From a virus (Duplodnaviria; Caudoviricetes): DNA of 64,000 nt. The notes under the pieces were generated by a model, which saw nothing but the letters and a program-made list of their open reading frames with translations, did no database searches and was not told the origin of the DNA. Numbering within the stretch: the first letter of the stretch is position 1; the number at the start of each line of letters is the position of its first letter. Shown here piece by piece: positions 4,639 to 50,946 of the stretch. Both the position numbers and the translations under genes were made by a program. The DNA lies in the IMG/VR virus record IMGVR_UViG_3300043765_000163, positions 1,750-65,749 of that record; one strand, written 5' to 3'.

Positions 4639-4885
4639 CGTTTCGATATACCTCTATGTAAAAATCCCAGCCGCCTTCCACATCATCGACTAACTTGATC
4701 CGGCCAAATGGATACTCTTCGTGTACCCGTTTGACCGCCTTGTCATACATGCTGACCGGATAACCCTTGGGCCGGCTGTACTTGCCTTCATTGGTCAACC
4801 GCCGGCTCTTGCCCAGCTTCTTGGGCGCTTCCCGATACTTCTCTACCCGTATCTGATAGACTATTATTACCCGTTTCTGTTTCAT
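4583..4885 (-). CDS. Hypothetical basic protein
   Basis: 100-aa ORF in the early cluster. Confidence 0.6.
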   Translation of the reverse strand: MKQKRVIIVYQIRVEKYREAPKKLGKSRRLTNEGKYSRPKGYPVSMYDKAVKRVHEEYPFGRIKLVDDVEGGWDFYIEVYRNDEEIRIRSDQTSGLASGD

Positions 4886-5126
4886 TACCTCCTTTCGTTT
4901 CTATCACTTGGATCGCTTCCACCCAATACTGGCTCTTCATTACCCTCGTCTGCCCATCCCACCAGTACATGATAAATCCGCCGTTAGGCGTCGGCATGCT
5001 CGCCGCCAGATGCTCAGCCGCCCACATCTCCGCATTTAATCGCGCACTCTTAGTCGGCCCCAACCGCTCCCATTGGTCGAGAGTCTTGCAGTTCCCACCC
5101 AGTTTGTACCGAATCGGCTCGCTCAT
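4788..5126 (-). CDS. Hypothetical protein
   Basis: Likely start MSEPIRY at 5126; the C-terminus overlaps the next gene. Confidence 0.55.
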   Translation of the reverse strand: MSEPIRYKLGGNCKTLDQWERLGPTKSARLNAEMWAAEHLAASMPTPNGGFIMYWWDGQTRVMKSQYWVEAIQVIETKGGNETETGNNSLSDTGREVSGSAQEAGQEPAVDQ

Positions 5127-5365
5127 TCTTGCGCCTCGCTTTTCTCTACTTCCCAATGTTCCCCTTGCCTGATTATGCCGAGTAACGTATCAATCCGGTC
5201 AATCGATCGTTGCGCACCGTCATGCCGAGGCCATTCACTCCGTAATCCCGCTTCATCCCGATCCCGCTCCTGCCTAGCCCGATAATAGGCCAGCGCATGA
5301 ATCAGTGTGATCTCTTCCACAGAATTAAATCGAATCTGCTTTATGTAATAATCGCTTCCACTCAT
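5123..5365 (-). CDS. Hypothetical protein
   Basis: 80-aa ORF, coupled to its neighbour. Confidence 0.6.
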   Translation of the reverse strand: MSGSDYYIKQIRFNSVEEITLIHALAYYRARQERDRDEAGLRSEWPRHDGAQRSIDRIDTLLGIIRQGEHWEVEKSEAQE

Positions 5366-5486
5366 AATCGCTTCTTGCCAAACGGCCGCAGCAAGCTTAA
5401 ATAAAAATCCAGGTTAGCCGATCGCTCCCGAACCGCTGCACTTAATCTTTTCTGCTTCTTCTGTCTCTTCTTCATATAAATAAAAA

Positions 5487-5517
5487 CGGCTGGCAACTCT
5501 GTTACAATTGCCAGCCG
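5487..5517 (-). terminator. Intrinsic terminator
   Basis: CGGCTGGCAA / TTGCCAGCCG perfect 10-bp stem, followed by TTTTT on the minus strand. Confidence 0.75.
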
Positions 5518-5536
5518 CTATCCTGTTTTCTTTCTG

Positions 5537-5785
5537 TTAGTCCTGCTTATCGTAATGCCGTAAACGACGATCCATCTCGTCCCGGTCATGCTCCCATCTG
5601 GCCCGATCTTCCCGAATCTGATCGTCCAGTTCCTGACTCCTTCTCTGGGCTTCCGCATCTTCCAATGCTCGATTGGCCCGATCTACATCAGATTGCAGCC
5701 GATCCAACCGGTCTTCCAATTCGCCAGCACTGGCACCAGCAACTAGCAACACTAGCCCCGTTATTATTATTAGTAACTGCTTCAT
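5537..5785 (-). CDS. Secreted or membrane-anchored coiled-coil protein
   Basis: Signal peptide MKQLLIIITGLVLLVAGASA followed by a charged heptad-like segment. Confidence 0.65.
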   Translation of the reverse strand: MKQLLIIITGLVLLVAGASAGELEDRLDRLQSDVDRANRALEDAEAQRRSQELDDQIREDRARWEHDRDEMDRRLRHYDKQD

Positions 5786-5912
5786 TTTTTAACCCTTCCA
5801 AATGTTGATCCCTTGCGCCAAAAATGTTAGTTCACCCTTGTCCGCTTCAGCATCAAGCTCTCGATTAGTGTATTCCTCCTGCCAATAATCCTGTTCTGTT
5901 TCTGTCATAACT

Positions 5913-6134
5913 CTATTCCTTAAAGTAACTGACCGCACACCAAATAGTTAGTATGACCCAGCCGACTAACCCGATTCCTAACATAGTTAGCTGCTGATCA
6001 ATCGGGTGCCGAGCTAACCCGTGGTCAAGCGCAAATGCGCTCGTCCCACACCAGCCTATCGCCCCAAATGTCCCACTAACTAACCAGCGCATCCGCTTAC
6101 TCACTTCAGTAACCCTACTTCCTCGCTCAGCCAT
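5913..6134 (-). CDS. Small membrane protein
   Basis: Two hydrophobic segments in 73 aa. Confidence 0.55.
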   Translation of the reverse strand: MAERGSRVTEVSKRMRWLVSGTFGAIGWCGTSAFALDHGLARHPIDQQLTMLGIGLVGWVILTIWCAVSYFKE

Positions 6135-14053: not shown

Positions 14054-15907
14054 CTAGACAACTCCTTTCACAATTATTGCCCCGGAAAATGTTCCGGCTG
14101 AAAGAAACAGGTTCATTGAAACCATTCTGCCAGCGTTGGTACCGAAACCGGATAACGTAAACGTGCCGACAAAACCGCTTGAATTGTACATTCCACCAGA
14201 TTGACCTGAAAAAGAAAAATAGCTACCGGCGTCACCCGGATGAATTCTATGATTAACTAAATGCCGGGCAGACTGTTCCAGCCAGTGCGTAATGTAAAGG
14301 GAAGTACCGTTGTTATAAGTTCCTACCGTCAGCACAGTGGTACTGCTATCGTACCAGTACACACCGTAATAACCGGTCGTAATATAAGTGGTCCCATCGA
14401 GACTGGTTTGGATCTGCATATTCGGCGTACCCGTGTTGCATAACAGTCGGGTAATTTGCAGATCGAAATAAGTGTAACCGGCTGGAAAGAAAATAACCTG
14501 GCTGGTTGCGGCGGATAGATTAAGCGAACCCAGCACTACTTCGCGTGCTAATCCAATTGTCCGCCAGTTAGTGCCATCGGTAACAATGGTGCATTCCTGC
14601 TGGGCTAAAAGCTGGATACTAGCTGCACCATTAATCGTGTTGGTGCCGCTGGTCGCAATCGTTATGACCCCGCCTATAGCGGTGATTCCCGGATTATCAT
14701 TACGAACCAGATAATTTAAACCAGCGGCCGCCGGTGGCAGTGTCAGTGTCCAGCTGCCTCCAGAACAAATAATGTAGTATCCGCTATCAGCCGGGCTAAC
14801 GGTATAGGCAGCAGTTTTTGATACAAAGCCCTTAAATGCTGTGGCCGCTACTGCCGCCAGATTATGACAGGTGTTATCGCCGCCGACATAATCGGTGGTC
14901 AGCCCGCTCATCTTGGTAACCAGCCCCGGCTGGGTGGTATCAGCCATCGGCACCGTGGGAGAAGTTTGCGGTACACCGTAGCTAGCCCGGATGCAGTAAG
15001 TCAGGCAGAGGAAAGGTGCCATAACGTTATGGGCTGAGCTGGAACCTTGAGTATCGGTAGCAACGCCGCCGCGCGCCGCGTCTGTGTCAGTCCACGCGTT
15101 GGCTGAGTTAGCTATCGAACCGCAGACTACGTTTAGTCCGGTACACCAGAATTGGCCGGCATTTTGGACTGAACCGACTACCTGATTTTCACCGCTGGTC
15201 GTAGAAGTTTGTACGGTGCCGAAACTTCCGTAAGAACCTTGTGTTACTCCGGTGCGGGTTGCTGAATCGGCGGCGACAGTGTGCGTATGACCGTTATTAG
15301 TCCAACCATGGCCGTGAACCGGGGCAAGGTTGGAATGATTGCCATCATTCCAGCCGTGTCCGTGCGCCATGGTCAGGTGTTGATGGTTACCGCCGTTATG
15401 AGCGTGAGCAGCAAGTTCAGCTAGCGAAAGAACATGAGTTTCCTCGCCGCCGGTCATTGCCAAAGTTCGGTTAGTTAAACTGGTGCCTTGCCCCACTCCA
15501 ATAATCATTTTAGAGCGCAGATCGGGCAGATTAAACGTGGTCGCGCCATCGCCTGCGCCGAAGCTCGTTCCGACTACACTGAAAAGCTGGGCATAAGTTG
15601 TGCGGGATTGAGCACTTCCGTCGCATAGTAAATATCCGGTTGGCGGGGTGACAGACGGCCACGCGATGATGGTGCCGACTAGATTCCCGTCATAACCATT
15701 TATTCCTTGTGGCCCCACTGGACCAGTTGCTCCAGTGGGTCCAGTCGCGCCAGTTGGTCCAGTCGGTCCAGCGGGTCCAGTGGTTCCCGGCGGCCCGGGC
15801 ACAGTTGAAGCGGCTCCTACTGGACCTTGTTGACCAGCAGGAGATATTTGAGCGCCGCTGGGCACCACGGTTCCGGGCAAAGCTTGTTCTGTAGCCGGTT
15901 CAGGCAT
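14054..15907 (-). CDS. Collagen-like tail fibre with tail-collar domain and His boxes
   Basis: GPx repeats; GYLLCDG...YAQLFSVVGTSFG...TFNLPDLR collar motif; HGHGW repeats; C-terminal SKTAAYTV-type domain. Confidence 0.85.
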   Translation of the reverse strand: MPEPATEQALPGTVVPSGAQISPAGQQGPVGAASTVPGPPGTTGPAGPTGPTGATGPTGATGPVGPQGINGYDGNLVGTIIAWPSVTPPTGYLLCDGSAQSRTTYAQLFSVVGTSFGAGDGATTFNLPDLRSKMIIGVGQGTSLTNRTLAMTGGEETHVLSLAELAAHAHNGGNHQHLTMAHGHGWNDGNHSNLAPVHGHGWTNNGHTHTVAADSATRTGVTQGSYGSFGTVQTSTTSGENQVVGSVQNAGQFWCTGLNVVCGSIANSANAWTDTDAARGGVATDTQGSSSAHNVMAPFLCLTYCIRASYGVPQTSPTVPMADTTQPGLVTKMSGLTTDYVGGDNTCHNLAAVAATAFKGFVSKTAAYTVSPADSGYYIICSGGSWTLTLPPAAAGLNYLVRNDNPGITAIGGVITIATSGTNTINGAASIQLLAQQECTIVTDGTNWRTIGLAREVVLGSLNLSAATSQVIFFPAGYTYFDLQITRLLCNTGTPNMQIQTSLDGTTYITTGYYGVYWYDSSTTVLTVGTYNNGTSLYITHWLEQSARHLVNHRIHPGDAGSYFSFSGQSGGMYNSSGFVGTFTLSGFGTNAGRMVSMNLFLSAGTFSGAIIVKGVV

Positions 15908-15911
15908 AAGG

Positions 15912-18446
15912 TTAGGAATATTCGGTGATAATGACCACTCCAGCCGAGCCAGCGCCGCCAGCTACCGAGGCAGTTCCCGCTGCTACGCATCCTCCACCGC
16001 CTCCAGCGCCATACGCACTAGCGTTGTGACCAGCGGTAGAACCGCCGGCCTGATTAAAATTACTTGGGCCACCGCCACCAAAAAGGCTTGAGCCACCTAC
16101 ACCAGCCGGCCCATACATATTAGCCGCAGCAGTACTATATGTCGCATAAAGACCGGCGGCCCCCGGAGCACCACTGCAAGCGAAATCTCCTGTACCGATA
16201 GCCGCGCCACCGCCACTTCCTGAACCATTGTTAGCGGATACACCTCCATATCCGCCGTTAGCTACACATAACGAACCAACGCTGGTTGCTCCCCCATTAC
16301 TGCCATTATTATTTCCAGCTGCTCCTCCAGCGCCGCCAGCACCTATTGTGACAGCTTGTGATGCACCGACCTGGGCAGCGGTAGCGAATTTTCGCGAATA
16401 ACCACCGGCACCACCTCCGCCGCCAATTAAATTATAACTAGCGTTGCCAAGAACGGCACCGCCACCAGCACCGCCACCGACACATTCGATGATGCAGGTA
16501 TGCATTCCAGCGGACGGCGTGTAGGTGCCGCTGGCTGCGAAAACTTGGATTCCGATTGGACCCGTATGTGTTGGCACATAGATTTTACTGTCACTACCTA
16601 GAGTGGCAATGTTACCAGCATCGGCGCTGACAACAGCCGGCGTAAAAACCAGTTTATCTGACCCCAGTTTAGAAGTGTTTCCTGCATCGGTACTGATAGG
16701 TGCGGGAGTGAAAACCAATTTGTCCGATCCCAATTTAGAAGTGTTTCCGGCATCAGTGCTGATTAATGGAGTCTGACTCGCGCTTAAATTGAGTAGGGTC
16801 ACCTGGTTGCCGTTGATAGCTTGGACTTGCATCGTTCCCGGTTGCCCTACACCACCACCGGCCTGATCGACCCAGAGTATTTGACCTACAACCATCCAGG
16901 ATGCGTTTGTTACGGTTGCAACTACGGTTGAGCCAATCGGCGGAACGGTGAATCCAGCCGTTGAGCTAGTGTAAGCGTTGACTCCCTGCGGCCCTGGAAC
17001 AGTCGAGGCTGGACCGATCGGCCCCGCCGGACCAGTCGCTCCGGTTGGTCCAGCTGGTCCAGTTGCTCCTATTGGGCCTTGACTTCCGGTAGCGCCAGTT
17101 GGACCAGTTGGTCCAGTTGGTCCAGTCGCGCCGATTTGAGCGATTATGCTCCAATAAGTGGCATTGGGCGGCGGCTGGTTTGTGTTAGCCGCGATACAGA
17201 CATAGCTGCTGCCAGCGGAGCTAATTGTATCATAAGGATTATAAGCAGTGGCGGCACTCCATGCTCCTTTCCAAGTGTACCCTTGACCGGGTGCGCCGGT
17301 TGCTCCGACGGGTCCAGTTGGGCCGGCTGCTCCAGTTAGCCCAGTTGGTCCAGCCGGGCCGGTTGCTCCGGTTGATCCAGTTGGCCCGGTTGCTCCGGTT
17401 GATCCAGTTGCCCCGGTTGGACCCGCTGGCCCAACCGCTCCGGTCGCCCCGGCCGCCCCGGTTGCTCCAGTTGGACCTGTCGGCCCTTCCGGTCCTACCG
17501 GCCCGGTGCCGGTCAAAGTATTTCCAGAGGGCGCAATAGAACCGGGCGTTTGGTTGACGGTATACCCGAGGTTTTGCAGGGTTAACTGGTTGGCTCCGGT
17601 GTTAACCGCGGTAATCGTCAGATAACCGATTGGGCTGATATAAGCGACTGCGCCGATTCCGAACTCGGCTGCGCCTCCGGCGGCAACGCTGGCGACGCCA
17701 GTCGCGTTGACTGCTGGCATAGTAAAGGCTGCGCTTAGAGTGGTTGAAGCGCTGGCGCCTCCAGGCGGTCCCGGTGGTCCGGCTGGCCCAACTTCTCCAG
17801 TTGCTCCAGCTGGTCCAGCTGGTCCAGTTGTACCAGTTGCACCAGCTGGCCCAGCTGGGCCGGGAACGGTTGAAGCTGCACCGGGAGGTCCGGTTGCGCC
17901 AGTAGGTCCAGTTGGACCAACCGGCCCGGGCACAGTTGAAGCTGCACCGGGAGGTCCAGTTGGTCCAGTTGGACCAGTTGCACCGGCATTTCCGGGCGGT
18001 CCTTGAGGACCAACTGGCCCCGCTGGTCCTCCAGATGGACCTTGTGGACCAACCGGTCCCGGAACGCCTTGTTCACCAATTGGCCCTGGCGGCCCCGGTT
18101 GTCCTCTTGGCCCAGCTACACCGGGAGCGCCAATTGGTCCAGCTACACCCGGAGCTCCGGGTTCGCCTTGAATTGATTTTGGGGCGCCAATCCACTTGCC
18201 GTATGTCCGAACAAAAGTACCGCTGGAACCAGCTGGAACATCTGTGATACCAGTAGTTCCGTTACCGGTAGTTGATTGTGATTGCACTACCGGAATTATT
18301 TTTTGAATAACGGTTTCTTTAGTCGGAACCTCTTTTTTTTCCGGCGTTATTACCGGAATCAGTTTTCGGACAACGGTTTTTTTAGTCGGAATCCATTGTC
18401 CTTTTTTCCGAACAGCAAATGTGCCTTCTGGAATGTTTTCAGGCAT
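15912..18446 (-). CDS. Collagen-like tail fibre with CBM-like segment and Gly-rich C-terminal domain
   Basis: Long GPx runs; [11 protein letters not shown]...YVC...YW segment; three STDAGN..LGSD repeats; GGGGAGG-type C-terminal domain. Confidence 0.85.
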
Positions 18447-18842
18447 TTAATCCTCTCCGCAACCGCACGAATGACCGAACCAATCATGCATCCACATCGA
18501 AGTATCGACATGCCCAGCTGCATCGCTGGTTAGCTGAGTCAGGTTTGTGTTGATGGGAGGACCAGCAGCGTCTCGGGCCGGAGTTTTATCCGGTACGACA
18601 TTGATCGGTTTTTTCTGATTGGTTTTGTACCGGATCTCGGCTTCACGATGGAAATCAGCCGCGCGGCCTTGTAACCCGCCGGTAAACATTTCTGGTGTGC
18701 GACCGCCAGTTGTAGCAAGTGCTTGAGCGCGTAAGCGTTCAAGGGAACTCATCGGCAGTTGCGGTTCGGGCGTATGCGCTTCACTGCGAAGTGGAGTAGT
18801 AGTTTCCCGACGGCTGCGGTTAGGATCATATCTGTTGGTCAT
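18447..18842 (-). CDS. Hypothetical protein
   Basis: 131 aa, abutting the polymerase and fibre genes. Confidence 0.6.
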   Translation of the reverse strand: MTNRYDPNRSRRETTTPLRSEAHTPEPQLPMSSLERLRAQALATTGGRTPEMFTGGLQGRAADFHREAEIRYKTNQKKPINVVPDKTPARDAAGPPINTNLTQLTSDAAGHVDTSMWMHDWFGHSCGCGED

Positions 18843-20716
18843 TTGAGATATCTTTCTGTAATCTTGGCTTCAGCTGATACGGGGCAACTAGCCAGCCAAG
18901 AAGGACTTATGCCCATTAAATCTTTGATTTGTGAAGCGGCAGCTTCTGCAATATGAATCGGAACTTCAGTGACCAGTTCATCATGAACACGCATTATGAT
19001 CCGGTACCCAGCTTGAGCGACATGCAAGCACGCTTCCATAAACACGTCTCTGGCAATGGCTTGCACGATATTTTCGCAAATCCGGCCACCGTACAGTTTT
19101 GTCCGGACCCGTTTGTCTCCACGACAGAGTTCTGCCGTCAACTCGCCGCTTTTGCTGTACTTGACCTTTTCATAACGGAGAATTCGGCCGGAGGGAAGCT
19201 CAACGCAGTATTCTTGGTTAACGCTTGCTTTAGCGGCATCATCGAGGTGTTTCCAAAACCGTGGGATTCGATAATTATCTTTCCGATAACCAGTTACGAG
19301 TAACCAGGAATTGGTCCATTCACGTTCCAGCTCCGGTGATCGGACACGCCATTTCTCAAGAGTGGGTTTATCTTTCTCGTATGCGTGCAGAAACTCGGCA
19401 AAAGCCGCCACATCGATTTTGGATACCGGAGCCGCAAATACCTTTGCGGCATCTTTACCCAGATACATGGGCAGGTAAGCCATGACATTGAATTTGCGCC
19501 AGCCGGCGCCGTAGCCGAGCGCCAGAACGCGCGCCTTGGCTAACCGGTACATTGGGTCTGTTTTTGGTAGAAACGGGCTGCAATAGCCCATTGTGGCCCG
19601 GCAATGGGCCTCGTAGGGGCTCATCCCACCCCGGATCAGGGCCAGCTGATCGTTATCTTTGACCAAGGTGAGCAAAATCCGCGCTTCGATCTGTTCTAGA
19701 TCAGCGATTACCAGCCGATGATCAGGCGGTGCGACGATTGCAGCGCGTAAATCCGCTCCGTAAAGCTCACCATGAGGCAAATTTTGCATGTTAACCCCTC
19801 CGGCACCGGAATCGCGACCGGTATGACTGCCCCAGTATTTGAGCTCGAATGGCATCCGGCCGTTGGCGCCCTGCCGAGATAGCATTTTGTCGATTTTTTT
19901 ATCTAATATGTTGCACCGGCGATAGTTACGCATGTGTTCAACCCACGGGTATTTACCCCGGTACATCTCCATCCAAGCGTCGCATTCCTCACTGGTTATG
20001 GCGAGACTGGTCGGTGGATTGATTGCTTCTTTTTCACAGCGTTTACGGAATTCAGCCATCGAGAGAGGCGGTTTCCACGGGATTCCATCAAGCGCGATCT
20101 CTTTCTGGCTGGATAAACTTTCGCGCGCTTCTTCCAAGTGGCTGGCATCAAGATAAACACCTTGCGCGCACATATTTAGCGTTAACAAGCTGAATGTGCG
20201 CTCTGTTTCCGGCCATTTGGAATAATTATTATTCCAGATTTCCCAGCACAGTTTGGCGTCGGCTAATGCGTACTGGATAACAGCTTCTTTCAGGTCACTG
20301 GGCAAAGTGATCCACTGCTTACCCCGCATTTTTTTGCGGATATCTTTGGAATGTTCAGCGCCTAAAAGCTGCCGGCTGGCACCATCTAAACCGCGTGGCG
20401 CACCTAAGTAGGCGGCAAGATTGGCGGTGCAGTTCCATTCTCTGGGCCGAACTTCTTTTGGAACAATTCCCTTTGCTTGGAGAAGACTGAAAACTTGGGC
20501 GTCGAAGTTGGCATTGTGACTGACAACGAGTCGGTCGTGTAAAAGGCTATAGTCGAAATTTCCGGGATCGGTTGCGATTGAGGTTCCGTTTCCATCGTAA
20601 GCAGTAATCAAATAAATTTCAGTTTGGGCGAGATACTCCGCTACACCCATCTTTTTAACGCTTAAACGGGTGTCATAATAAGTTTCAAAATCGACCGCGA
20701 TATGGTTGGGGGTCAC
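18839..20716 (-). CDS. polA: Family A DNA polymerase with 3'-5' exonuclease
   Basis: DFET and HNANFD exonuclease motifs; DLEQIEAR (motif A), KARVLALGYG (motif B), VHDEL (motif C). Confidence 0.95.
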   Translation of the reverse strand: MTPNHIAVDFETYYDTRLSVKKMGVAEYLAQTEIYLITAYDGNGTSIATDPGNFDYSLLHDRLVVSHNANFDAQVFSLLQAKGIVPKEVRPREWNCTANLAAYLGAPRGLDGASRQLLGAEHSKDIRKKMRGKQWITLPSDLKEAVIQYALADAKLCWEIWNNNYSKWPETERTFSLLTLNMCAQGVYLDASHLEEARESLSSQKEIALDGIPWKPPLSMAEFRKRCEKEAINPPTSLAITSEECDAWMEMYRGKYPWVEHMRNYRRCNILDKKIDKMLSRQGANGRMPFELKYWGSHTGRDSGAGGVNMQNLPHGELYGADLRAAIVAPPDHRLVIADLEQIEARILLTLVKDNDQLALIRGGMSPYEAHCRATMGYCSPFLPKTDPMYRLAKARVLALGYGAGWRKFNVMAYLPMYLGKDAAKVFAAPVSKIDVAAFAEFLHAYEKDKPTLEKWRVRSPELEREWTNSWLLVTGYRKDNYRIPRFWKHLDDAAKASVNQEYCVELPSGRILRYEKVKYSKSGELTAELCRGDKRVRTKLYGGRICENIVQAIARDVFMEACLHVAQAGYRIIMRVHDELVTEVPIHIAEAAASQIKDLMGISPSWLASCPVSAEAKITERYLK

Positions 20717-47387: not shown

Positions 47388-49835
47388 ATGGATTATACCG
47401 GAGCAATCAACGTCGATATTCAACCGGCTGGTCCGATTGATGTAACCGTCGATTTTACGGGTCCGGAAGGGCCGCAAGGGCCGGCTGGCCCACCGGGATT
47501 AGTCGGGCCCCCCGGCCCGGTTGGACCAATCGGCCCGATTGGACCATCGGTATTTAGTCGGACTACACTGAATTTTGTTGCGCCGGCAATCGGGGCAACG
47601 GTACCGGTTAATGTCGATAGCACAGTCTGGATGGCTGTAGGACAACCGGTTTATATATCCGGGGCTGGTTATTACACGATTGAAGTAATTAATTTTACCA
47701 ATGTTATAACTGTCATGAATAGCGGCGATCCGTCTAACGTCGCCGCTGGAACAACAGTTTCGGCTGGATCCGCTATTACATTAAGTGGTTCAGTCGGACC
47801 AGCTGGACCGGTTGGACCAGCTGGACCGGTTGGACCAGGGTTAGAAATAACCGGTACAGTTGCAACATCGGCTAACTTACCGGCAACCGGATCTCCAGGA
47901 CAAACCTATATCGCACTGGATACCGGGCACGGTTGGAATTGGAGCGGAAGCGCATGGGTTGATATCGGTCCAATTCGAGGTCCGGCCGGCCCGATTGGTC
48001 CAGTGGGGGCGACTGGACCAACTGGCGCACAAGGAAATGTCGGGCCAGCGGGTCCGATTGGACCAGGTGGACCAATTGGATCAACTGGAGTGCAAGGTCC
48101 GGTTGGCCCACAAGGAAATGTTGGCGCGACTGGGCCGCAAGGAGCCGTTGGACCAACTGGTCCTATCGGTAACACCGGAACAACAGGACCAGTCGGACCG
48201 ATGGGGCCACCCAGTGGTACAGCGGCTTATTCCAAATTAGCAGCGACATTCACTATGCCGGCTGTAGCCGCATCAGCTCCAGCTAGTTTGGTCCCCGGGG
48301 GCGGCGCCATGTTCAGTGTCGGCCTGATCGTATTTGTTTCGCCGGTTGGTTATTTGAGTATTACGGCAATCGCTACTGACACGCTCACCTTACAAAATCT
48401 AGGGTATACGGTTAACCAAGCGGCCGGTTCCACTGCGCTCAGTGGTAACACTGTAACTGGCACAGGTCCGCAAGGACCGCAAGGTATAACCGGCGCAGCC
48501 GGCGCACAAGGTATTCAAGGACCGCAAGGTGTAGCCGGTTCCCCTGGTGCCATTGGTTCAGCTGCGACGGTTGCTATTGGAACCACTACAACCGGAACAG
48601 CTGGTTCACAGGCTAATGTGACTAATACCGGCACTGGAAGCGCTGCGGTATTTAATTTTACAATTCCAACCGGGACACAAGGTCCAGCTGGTACCGCCGG
48701 GGCAACCGGGCCAGCCGGTGCGGCGGGATCACCCGGGATACAAGGTCCAGTTGGACCAACCGGTGGAACCGGATCACCCGGTAATGACGCGTTTACGACT
48801 GTTAACACCGGTTTTACTGTGCCGCCAGTCGGTCAAACCGTGACGATTTATGTCGCCGATTCGACTTTTGCCACTATCGGCGAACTGGTTTATGTCGCTG
48901 GTGCCGGCACCGGCGGAACTCAAGCTGGCGCGTTACAGGTTACAGCCAAAGCCCCCGGGCAATTGACATTATTAAATCCGGTGCCGCCTCCGGCTATTCC
49001 GCCAGCGGATAATACTCAACCTGGGTTACTGAACAAATTATCGGGAAACAGCACCGATTATGTCGGAGGCGATAACAATTGTCATACGCTTAACGCGGTC
49101 CCAACAGGAACAGTTCACGATTTTGCCGGGCCATTAACGGCGGTTCCAGTCGGGTATTTAGGATGTGATGGCACGATCTACAACATTTCCCAGTATCCGA
49201 CTTTAGGTGCGCTTTTAGGTGCGACTTTTGGTGGAGACGGTACAACTACATTTGCTGTGCCGGATTGTCGAAGTCGAAGCTCGATTGGTTCCGGGCAAGG
49301 TACCGGGCTAACCAATCGTGTATTAGGAGCAAACGGCGGCGAAGAGACACATGTGTTGTCGGTCGCGGAACTTGCCAATCACGCTCACGGTTGGAACGAT
49401 TCCGGGCACGCTCAATATATTCAAGCGCATGGGCATGGCTGGAGTGATTCAAATCATAACCATGTTTTGCCGGTACACGGCCACGGCTGGAACGATTCCA
49501 ATCATTACCATGCTATCGCAAACTTAGCCGGTAACGGTAATATGACGGGTGGTAGCCAAGCGTCATGGAACCGAGGCGGCGGCAATACTAATACAGGTTA
49601 CGAAAGCAATGTTGTCGGTTCGGTCGCAAATGCCGCCGCCATGTGGAATAACAGCATTGCATCAACCGCAGCGACTTATGGTGGACCATCAACTTGCGGC
49701 AGTGTCGATAACATGGGCGCATTTTGGTCGGGTGGCCCAAACGTCGCAGTCGGTTCGGTTGCGGCAAATGGCAGTAGCACCGCGCACAACACAATGATGC
49801 CTTTTATTTGTTTCAATAAAATTATAAAAACCTAA
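47388..49835 (+). CDS. Collagen-like tail fibre with C-terminal collar domain and His boxes
   Basis: GPx runs, three copies of the repeated module, GYLGCDG..YPTL..TFAVPD collar motif, HGHGW repeats. Confidence 0.85.
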
Positions 49836-49839
49836 ACAT

Positions 49840-50121
49840 ATGGCAGCATTACAATGGTTAGAGCCAATTGAAGCCGCTATCCCGGCTGAAACTGAATCAG
49901 GATTCCCCGGGGTACCGCCTAGTCCGCTTCGAGTGGCGGCAAGCAAGCGAACAGATTACCGGATTTATTTAACTCCGGAAGATACTTATTTAGTAGTGGT
50001 AACTATTGCCGCTCGAACCGGGCCGCTAAGTACAACTTACCAGTTAACACAAACAGCTGCTTCTGAAGAAGAAGCCAAGGCAATAGCGCAAGCTGATTGG
50101 GATAGCGGTAAACGACCGTAA
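49840..50121 (+). CDS. Small protein between fibre genes (possible assembly chaperone)
   Basis: 93 aa; called from position only. Confidence 0.55.
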   Translation: MAALQWLEPIEAAIPAETESGFPGVPPSPLRVAASKRTDYRIYLTPEDTYLVVVTIAARTGPLSTTYQLTQTAASEEEAKAIAQADWDSGKRP

Positions 50122-50127
50122 AAATTT

Positions 50128-50946
50128 ATGGCTAATCCAGTCGCAATTCCAGGTACCCCTGTGCTAGCTAACGCCTTAGTCACTCCAGGCGGAGCGCAAG
50201 GTATACAGGGTATTCAAGGGCCGGCAGGACCAACTGTGATTTCGACTGATGCCGGTAACGTAGCAACACTGGGTAGCGATAGCAAAATTTATGTGCCGCA
50301 CATTTCTAGTGTAATCGCAATCCAAAAATTTACTGCTTCCGGTACTTATGTACCGTCTACCGGCATGACCAGATGCATTATTGAATGTTTGGGCGGGGGC
50401 GGCGGTGGCGGCGGTGTGACCGGAGCGACTAACATTTATTGGACCGCTGGCGGAGGTGGCGCTGGCGGGTATGCGCGCCGGCTGGTTACCTTGGCACAAA
50501 TTGGGGCATCACAAACTATAACTATCGGTGCCGGTGGTGCCGGCGGTGTTGGCAACGCCAATGGTACAGCAGGTGGAGCAACCAGTGTTGGCACTTTTTG
50601 TGTTGCCAACGGCGGTGGCGGCGGTAATTCCGGTGCAAACGGTTGTGGCCCGGGGCTTGGTGGCGCTGGAACCACCGGAGATTTTCTTGCTTACGGCGGC
50701 ACCGGGCAAGGCGGAACTTGGAATGCGCCTAATACTGTCACCGTGTTAACCGGAGGGGGCGCTAACAGTCTGTGGGGTGGCGGCGGTCAATCAGTTCTGG
50801 TTGGCAGTGGCACAGCTGGTACTGGCGCTCCGGGTACCGGTTACGGTTCAGGTGGTGCCGGTGGTGGCGCAAACAATTATACAACTGTCAGTGTAAATGG
50901 CGGTGCTGGCGCACCTGGGTGCGTTATCATTACCGAGTATGCGTGA
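50128..50946 (+). CDS. Short fibre with Gly-rich C-terminal domain
   Basis: [19 protein letters not shown] and FTASGTYVPS..CIIECLGGGGG, homologous to the C-terminus of 15912..18446. Confidence 0.8.
   Translation: MANPVAIPGTPVLANALVTPGGAQGIQGIQGPAGPTVISTDAGNVATLGSDSKIYVPHISSVIAIQKFTASGTYVPSTGMTRCIIECLGGGGGGGGVTGATNIYWTAGGGGAGGYARRLVTLAQIGASQTITIGAGGAGGVGNANGTAGGATSVGTFCVANGGGGGNSGANGCGPGLGGAGTTGDFLAYGGTGQGGTWNAPNTVTVLTGGGANSLWGGGGQSVLVGSGTAGTGAPGTGYGSGGAGGGANNYTTVSVNGGAGAPGCVIITEYA

Follow-up and report, generated by a model that had tools for sequence, protein, structure and literature searches.

We analysed 64,000 nucleotides (nt) of a virus of the Duplodnaviria (Caudoviricetes), referred to here as the window, which comprises positions 1,750 to 65,749 of the IMG/VR record IMGVR_UViG_3300043765_000163 and covers this 65.7-kb record almost entirely. 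On its plus strand the window carries a cassette of three open reading frames (ORFs), which encode a collagen-like fibre of 815 amino acids (aa), a 93-aa protein and a second fibre of 272 aa, and our subject is a putative joint between the two fibres. The collagen runs of the 815-aa fibre are interrupted by a repeated module. A copy of the module is called closed when its core is followed in the same chain by a tail, and open when the tail is missing. The features of the cassette, located by ORF calling, Pfam, inspection of the sequence and hidden Markov models (HMMs) of the core and the tail, are as follows.

47388-49835, plus strand: 815-aa primary fibre (P0004), with an N-terminal region, collagen runs, two closed modules, an open module, a linker motif, a collar and a His-box (ORF, Pfam, three core-HMM matches)
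47544-47810, plus strand: closed module 1, residues 53-141; short-loop core and in-chain tail, then collagen
48216-48482, plus strand: closed module 2, residues 277-365; short-loop core and in-chain tail, then collagen
48783-48977, plus strand: open module, the proposed socket, residues 466-530; long-loop core to GQLTLLN, without a tail
48978-49100, plus strand: Pro-rich linker and conserved motif, the continuation of the chain past the socket; the motif also lies behind most open modules elsewhere, and no tail HMM matches it
49113-49277, plus strand: phage tail collar domain, residues 576-630 (Pfam PF07484, E 9e-18)
49380-49511, plus strand: His-box of HxH repeats, residues 665-708 (sequence)
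49840-50121, plus strand: 93-aa ORF between the two fibre genes, with homologues behind collar-type fibres
50128-50946, plus strand: 272-aa secondary fibre (P0005), with a plug, short collagen, an STDAGN segment and a Gly-rich domain (ORF, Pfam)
50128-50202, plus strand: proposed N-terminal plug, residues 1-25, MANPVAIPGTPVLANALVTPGGAQG (in-chain-tail HMM, alignment A3; predicted interface residues 4-24)
50188-50232, plus strand: five collagen triplets behind the plug (sequence)

The coordinates of the three ORFs agree with those in the first-pass annotation of this DNA. A public gene call for the first ORF is only 508 aa long (P0135, start at Met308). We consider the 815-aa reading to be the right one because the 307 in-frame residues upstream of that start hold collagen and two well-conserved modules. 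Pfam matched this fibre to Collagen (PF01391) in five stretches, at 76 bits against a cut-off of 27.2, and to the collar domain at 64.4 bits (gathering cut-off 24). Past the open module the chain runs through PVPPPAIPP and a widely conserved motif into a head with the collar and the His-box. The 272-aa fibre has an in-frame stop two codons 5' of its Met and was matched by Gly_rich_2 (PF21722) over residues 71-269 (44.6 bits, cut-off 24.3). It is without an anchor domain and opens with a short conserved peptide, the motif of which starts at residues 3-12 in proteins of this type, called plug proteins below. The short ORFs on the minus strand beneath the cassette are alternative frames of collagen-coding DNA.

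Searching the 65.7-kb genome with the core HMM returned exactly six modules, three in the 815-aa fibre, two in an 844-aa fibre and one in a 356-aa fibre. The 844-aa fibre forms a second cassette, on the minus strand, together with a 617-aa fibre. Domain E-values of the six modules ranged from 1e-22 to 4e-26, and the next best match had an E-value of 0.29. Four modules are closed: the last core strand, LTLxN, is followed by N..(A/P)G(T/S).(V/A)..G..(V/L)...G, after which collagen resumes. The other two, at residues 466-530 of the 815-aa fibre (48783-48977) and residues 489-553 of the 844-aa fibre (16788-16982), are open. Both stop at LTLLN and go on into non-collagen sequence, and in both the Gly-rich loop is longer by 7 residues, which in the third module of the 815-aa fibre are added in the region AGTGGTQAG. 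The earlier description of four complete copies, and of one that is cut at GQLTLLN and carries an extra loop, is thus borne out by the core HMM and the sequence. The break point is a conserved Asn-Pro (LTLLN/P), both in the window (48975-48983) and in most open modules of alignment A2, and several upstream proteins end in ...LLNP-stop.

Some other readings of the open modules were rejected. The 18-residue stretch behind LTLLN in the 815-aa fibre is recognised by no tail HMM, and with zero matches it does not qualify as a diverged in-chain tail. The extra loop was considered as a substitute for the tail and dismissed, since an in-chain tail closes 41 distinct cores of the long-loop type. An association between the long loop and open status speaks for the joint proposed below: long and short loops number 129 and 26 among open modules, and 41 and 129 among closed ones. 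The ADNTQPGLL motif was discarded as a candidate socket because the 844-aa fibre and the LTLLNP-ending proteins, which are without it, still have plug partners.

The first-pass annotation had proposed that the 272-aa fibre begins with the segment that the open module lacks and then enters collagen. A small HMM made from the genome's own four tails retrieved neither the N-terminus of the 272-aa fibre nor that of the 617-aa fibre. A further HMM, the in-chain-tail HMM, was built from 166 tails of closed modules in other phages, with the window sequences and all N-termini excluded. It matched the N-terminus of the 272-aa fibre with 28.4 bits (E 6.6e-8), at rank 3 of 1153 six-frame ORFs and amid the genome's four true tails, in agreement with the proposal. 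Ordinary collagen in the genome reached at most 13 bits with the same HMM. In the converse search, an HMM of 31 plug-type N-termini only gave the in-chain tails of complete modules scores of up to 45 bits. The N-terminus HMM found 38-41 N-terminal matches, plus one in-chain tail and one N-terminus with a mis-called start. In alignment A3, 38 distinct N-termini follow the pattern M-x(2-11)-PGT.V..G..V.PGG.QG and then enter collagen, and alignment A5 shows a column-for-column match between a fused module's tail and those of 28 closed modules. The profile comparisons show plug and tail to be homologous, because the HMMs detect each other reciprocally and the columns of A5 align. The short-loop tails of the window genome form just one divergent branch within a continuous range of such segments.

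Gene order was compared over 36 IMG/VR loci found with an open-core profile and one locus from an earlier search, plus the window genome. A fibre gene was classed as open/terminal if it ends in an open module or stops right behind one (e.g. LTLLNP-stop or LTLLNPPSS-stop), and a plug gene was counted as following if it lay within 150 nt; most were at 0-36 nt. A plug gene comes next after 36 of the 44 fibre genes that end in an open module and after 0 of the 35 other fibre genes (Fisher p 4.7e-15). Only 4 of those 35 precede another fibre-like gene at all, none of these with a plug. When the modules were clustered at about 70% identity, the partner was always present in 26 of 34 clusters; one cluster was mixed through a contig edge and seven were not directly followed. 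Among the eight non-adjacent cases, three, including the window (+296 nt), have a plug gene within 1.3 kb. The association was also seen from the other side. A degenerate DNA pattern for M-A-N-P-(I/V)-A-(I/V)-P-G-T returned 6 viral loci, and an open module lies upstream in all six, adjacent in 4, at +265 nt behind a small ORF in 1 and at 1.5 kb in 1. Truncated modules do then mostly co-occur with a downstream gene bearing the missing segment, a point that the first-pass annotation had proposed to check, and those without a partner are a minority (4 to 7 of the 34 clusters).

The arrangement commonly extends to three genes, in which a socket gene is followed by a gene with plug and socket and then by a plug gene (L001, L019, L021, L023, L025, L029, L039 and L041). 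The first gene of such a chain has a socket and no plug, and the last has a plug and no socket. Some upstream proteins finish at LTLLNP-stop, 4-10 nt ahead of M-ANPIAVPGT.

Core and plug-type tail are also found in one polypeptide. The only strong and truly internal match of the N-terminus HMM lies in a 553-aa protein of locus L032, six residues past a long-loop core. The order in this protein is core, VSTSG, PVPGTMVPSGSLISPAGDQG, collagen and STDPGN, a layout that corresponds to the socket and the 272-aa fibre joined into a single chain. A socket profile run against 1.84 billion representative proteins gave 1681 relatives at E <= 1e-3, and the best 150 of these 1681 include fused forms with a plug-type tail in P0014, P0018, P0111, P0010 and P0037; P0156, from a homologue search, is a further one. 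In each of them, a single chain unites the long-loop core with a plug-type tail and collagen. Both the gene-order rule and the existence of fused forms are direct observations. By Rosetta-stone logic, the fused forms suggest that the separated parts still meet, and we regard this as the strongest argument for the joint.

Structures were predicted with AlphaFold2 (AF2). The open module alone (residues 450-545 of the 815-aa fibre, 38-row alignment) gave a predicted local distance difference test score (pLDDT) of 88.8, with core blocks at 90-97; the model has four core strands, and its 13-residue N-terminal arm is coil. Since the open core is predicted with confidence on its own, the tail looks like two short strands added to the N-terminal arm and not like a missing core strand. 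This argues against an incomplete core, and complete folding of the truncated module on its own had been named by the first-pass annotation as a refuting outcome; confidence of prediction is, however, not the same as stability. For the fused L032 module, the model has pLDDT values of 86 and 81 in the two tail blocks and shows four extra short strands, two in the N-terminal arm (E17-19 and E23-24) and two in the tail (E88-89 and E94-96).

A complex of three copies of residues 450-545 of the 815-aa fibre and three copies of residues 1-42 of the 272-aa fibre was predicted using alignments A2 and A3. The interaction prediction scores from aligned errors (ipSAE) were 0.64, 0.63 and 0.65, compared to 0.01 for the best of three controls, so the N-terminal peptide docks in silico on the socket trimer, as had been anticipated. 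In calibration the mark was reached by 58 of 80 solved complexes and by 2 of 110 mismatched pairs, figures that are only roughly valid for our own alignments and for a 3+3 assembly. The runs agreed in at least 85% of contacts, with a partner pLDDT of 67. The predicted interface is formed on the plug side by residues 4-24 and on the socket side by residues 468-481, 494-510 (where the extra loop lies), 512-516, 526 and 530-531. The pairs with the lowest error are plug residues 8-12 (PGTPV) with FTV and residues 16-18 (ALV) with TTV. According to the contact lists and DSSP strings, the residues in contact in trans coincide with the strand positions that are present only in the tail-bearing fused L032 model. 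The model suggests that the plug runs antiparallel to the N-terminal arm, and the second collagen would therefore begin close to the end of the first one. In that case the barrels would sit as knobs at the side of a quasi-continuous stalk.

Known structures offered no close match to the socket. With the socket model, Foldseek found no clear relative (E >= 0.34) and the best VIA match, with Z 6.5, was only a common small beta-barrel; a profile search of PDB sequences gave collagen peptides only. The passing complex prediction is not a memory of a solved complex, because no solved structure resembles the module by sequence or clearly by fold.

We propose the following arrangement. The module that interrupts the collagen stalks would be a small beta-barrel of ~65 residues, closed by a tail of ~20 residues (PG-T-x-V..G..V-x-P-G-G-x-Q-G) that lies back along the N-terminal arm and from which the collagen helix starts again. 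In the 815-aa fibre, the last module would be split over two genes, with the core kept as a socket in the 815-aa fibre and the tail carried as a plug by the 272-aa fibre. Past the socket, the 815-aa chain would leave through the Pro-rich linker into its own collar/His-box head, and the 272-aa protein would consist of plug, collagen and Gly-rich head. The three plugs of a 272-aa trimer would dock one-to-one on the three cores of the 815-aa fibre by beta-strand addition, mounting a second receptor-binding head on the same stalk.

We consider it likely that the N-terminus of the 272-aa fibre docks on the open module of the 815-aa fibre. With similar confidence, the whole is probably a plug-and-socket joint born of module splitting, by which one fibre would bear two heads, the collar/His-box head and the Gly-rich head. 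That the two proteins dock physically we infer from the predicted complex and, by Rosetta-stone logic, from the fused forms. Docking of the 272-aa fibre would require a branched fibre; this geometry and the stoichiometry we likewise infer, the single basis for the branch being the 285 residues that come behind the socket in the same chain. Of the idea of completion in trans, the meeting of the two parts is supported by gene order, reverse ascertainment, fused forms and the complex prediction. The likening of the joint to pilus donor-strand complementation is imprecise, as the open core is predicted to be complete alone.

Several points weigh against the proposed joint. All the support for it is computational. 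In the window the plug gene is not adjacent to the socket gene, being separated from it by a 296-nt gap that holds the 93-aa ORF, and the N-terminus of the 617-aa fibre in the minus-strand cassette bears only a weak likeness to a tail (in-chain-tail HMM, 7.1 bits). The gene-order statistics are drawn from related phages, and most of the loci were found via the socket. About four open-module clusters (L018, L030, L035 and L042) have no plug gene in the flanks seen, and some sockets therefore stay empty. The confident fold of the open core without the plug speaks against an incomplete fold of the pilus type. The placement of the peptide may stem from an in-chain form learned by the predictor, in which case the complex prediction is not independent of the fused forms. 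The geometry must also fit an on-axis trimeric collagen together with a trimeric collar head that leaves from the periphery of the barrels. Lastly, a close cultured relative of the phage was sought and none was found, the matches to its DNA polymerase being at most 26% identical.

The alternative that survives best is that the N-terminal segment of the 272-aa fibre is a relic of fission or a generic cap for the start of collagen, which does not bind the upstream module, and that the 272-aa protein is attached otherwise. In complete modules the tail always precedes the restart of collagen and could serve its registration, the open core folds without the tail in silico, and some open modules are without a partner gene. 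However, fibres that come first in a chain start their collagen without the segment, and the plug proteins have no other N-terminal attachment domain, the motif starting as early as it does. A relic or cap would also leave unexplained why no plug gene comes behind any of the 35 fibre genes that lack an open module, and why the complex prediction passed. We therefore regard this explanation as unlikely.

Less probable still is that the boundary between module and tail is a hotspot of recombination for swapping distal heads, with the matching ends as a by-product. The window's two cassettes do hold the same parts with the heads exchanged, and very different distal domains lie behind the same socket and plug among phages. 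But what is conserved is protein sequence, and its identity of 30-60% does not suffice for homologous recombination. A docking joint is moreover fully compatible with the exchange of modules and would be expected to permit it, so that such exchange is a consequence of the joint more than an alternative to it.

That the two parts belong to a single polypeptide, with the module completed in cis through read-through, frameshifting or a sequencing error, is very improbable. The closest approach to it is seen elsewhere, where the LTLLNP stop lies only 4-10 nt ahead of the next ATG. In the window, socket and plug are separated by the 285-residue collar/His-box head, a stop, the 93-aa ORF and another stop, by which this explanation is effectively excluded here, and the same split recurs in dozens of independent assemblies. 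A chance likeness of short, low-complexity Gly/Pro/Thr/Val segments, for which the failure of the four-tail HMM and the low score of the 617-aa N-terminus could be cited, is equally improbable and is statistically rejected for the 272-aa protein by its score with the independent HMM, as well as by the reciprocal detection and by the N-terminus HMM otherwise matching only one in-chain tail and one mis-called start.

The proposed joint is closest to the anchor-branch systems of podophages such as Escherichia coli phage G7C and Klebsiella phages KP32, K11 and KP34, in which one receptor-binding protein (RBP1) carries a T4 gp10-like branching domain and a second (RBP2) a conserved N-terminal docking peptide (PMC6872550, PMC13352976). 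The docking peptide is 29 aa long in the KP32 group and down to 7 aa elsewhere (PMC6872550, PMC13352976), and the interaction between peptide and branching domain has been experimentally validated for KP32, K11 and KP34 (PMC13352976). As in those systems, there is an internal docking domain on a primary fibre, and a secondary fibre, encoded by the next gene, with a short conserved N-terminal peptide and no anchor. There would likewise be two receptor-binding heads per attachment point, freely exchangeable, and the secondary gene follows the primary, each predicting the other (36/44 vs 0/35 genes; 26/34 clusters; 6/6 in reverse). In contrast to those systems, the socket here is a beta-barrel of ~65 aa that interrupts a collagen helix, and the joint is predicted from sequence and modelling. 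The plug is also the detached C-terminal tail of the same module, of which complete in-chain versions exist, and there are chains of three or more proteins. Pfam and PHROGs placed no gp10-like family on the 815-aa fibre, and neither Foldseek nor VIA listed gp10 or the G7C gp66 chain with the socket model, a fold that can escape such matching.

In the pili of the chaperone-usher pathway, the Ig fold of a pilin is incomplete and unstable without a donor strand. The joint resembles these pili in that the next subunit is predicted to contribute beta-strands to the preceding one through its N-terminal extension, so that separately encoded subunits can be chained. It differs from them in that the barrel core is predicted to be complete alone, with the plug pairing with the N-terminal arm and a loop outside the barrel, and in that the subunits are trimeric and there is no chaperone or usher. 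The pilus analogy, as judged from the models, holds only loosely. The long tail fibre of T4 (gp34-gp35-gp36-gp37) is built of separately encoded segments with non-covalent, end-to-end joints, and the LTLLNP-stop variants would be linear joints of this kind. However, there is no relation to it in sequence or fold, and the T4 joints are neither derived from split repeats nor based on collagen.

The first-pass annotation had considered the mechanism to be new for collagen-like phage fibres. In the literature we found no paper on the module or on split joints in collagen-like fibres, and to that extent the claim stands; more generally it needs qualifying, as docking peptides on branching domains are known (PMC6872550, PMC13352976). 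The essentials of the earlier interpretation are supported, and its analogy is imprecise. The joint would belong with the systems in which a docking peptide binds a branching module, and its origin, by domain fission, would be unusually easy to trace.

Receptor-binding heads set the host range of phages, and the mounting of several heads has been worked out in few systems, for example those with T4 gp10-type domains. In the present case the sequence itself reveals the connector, since whole in-chain modules occur alongside the split ones. The joint would be a clear example of a protein-protein interface made by domain splitting, and would provide an annotation rule for co-assembling fibre proteins in a large family from uncultured phages, represented by the 1681 proteins above. 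With a plug of about 25 aa and a socket of about 65 aa, it is a small and defined pair that can be tested in vitro.

A broader reading, to which we give an even chance, is that the barrel module is a general, evolvable connector. Moving a gene boundary to the junction of core and tail would turn a covalent stalk repeat into a non-covalent joint by beta-strand addition, and such joints could be stacked into assemblies of three to perhaps eight proteins, each with its own head. Under this broader reading, the branching of fibres would have an origin in domain fission, by a mechanism distinct from that of T4 gp10-type branching domains. A 60,916-bp ENA contig that encodes P0018, P0158 and P0162 carries nine tandem fibre-sized genes (657, 645, 643, 514, 506, 73, 467, 468 and 472 aa), and P0158 and P0162 have a plug at the start as well as an open module. 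The layout of this array suggests long multi-protein chains.

The second open module and the second putative plug of the phage lie in the minus-strand cassette.

16788-16982, minus strand: second open module (proposed socket), in the 844-aa fibre, gene 15912-18446 (core HMM)
15824-15907, minus strand: proposed N-terminal plug of the 617-aa fibre, gene 14054-15907 (in the N-terminus HMM family)

The 617-aa gene begins 4 nt past the stop of the 844-aa gene, and its product starts with MPEPATEQALPGTVVPSGAQISPAGQQG, a tail-like segment that is followed by collagen. The distal heads are swapped between the plus- and minus-strand cassettes. The 844-aa and 617-aa fibres would form the same joint with the two heads exchanged, and the joint would thus explain why the same heads occur at exchanged positions in the two cassettes of the phage. 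The two joints within this one phage might be orthogonal. The neighbour of the minus-strand cassette (14054-18446) is the DNA polymerase gene (18839-20716), and the structural module lies far away from it.

The conserved motif behind the socket, (P/L)AD.TQ.GLL..(L/V)SG..TD(Y/F)(V/I).G.N.C, is found at 48990-49100 on the plus strand of the window, at about 14850-14950 on its minus strand and at many loci, and no Pfam family spans it. It also occurs in the 617-aa fibre behind the His-box, and directly behind the plug in L031 (7988).

Outside the fibres, very few Pfam or PHROG matches were found in the window. Searches of cultured phage genomes with blastn and tblastn left the module and the 272-aa fibre unmatched, the sole matches being to the collar domain, and the homologues of the fibre are all derived from metagenomes. 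No relative was found when viral contigs were queried with the 272-aa protein or when genome contigs were searched for relatives.

Homologues of the 93-aa ORF, with 35-38% identity over 55-60 aa, lie directly 3' of collar-type fibres at L033 (10021-10314) and L022 (10093-10383), and on the reverse strand of L056 a similar small ORF lies between a fibre ending in NKIIKI and a plug gene. This suggests that the 93-aa ORF is a candidate accessory protein, chaperone or assembly factor of the collar/His-box head that ends in ...NKIIK(T/I). It is probably outside the joint.

Two small genes upstream of plug genes, in L053 (301-846, minus strand) and L057 (754-1302, plus strand), share the same N-terminal half, MA.T.IRGTQV...GDVT.SVP. 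One of them ends in an open module and the second in an unrelated domain of ~120 aa; in the second phage the nearest socket is 1.5 kb upstream. In L001, two adjacent fibre genes (4702-5094 and 5096-6079) share a different N-terminus, MPWA..GNIKG, followed by collagen, and they come after genes ending in ...YLNTTTGEVFLFS and ...YLDTTTGDVYTFT. The cluster may thus hold another plug-and-socket pair, unrelated to the first.

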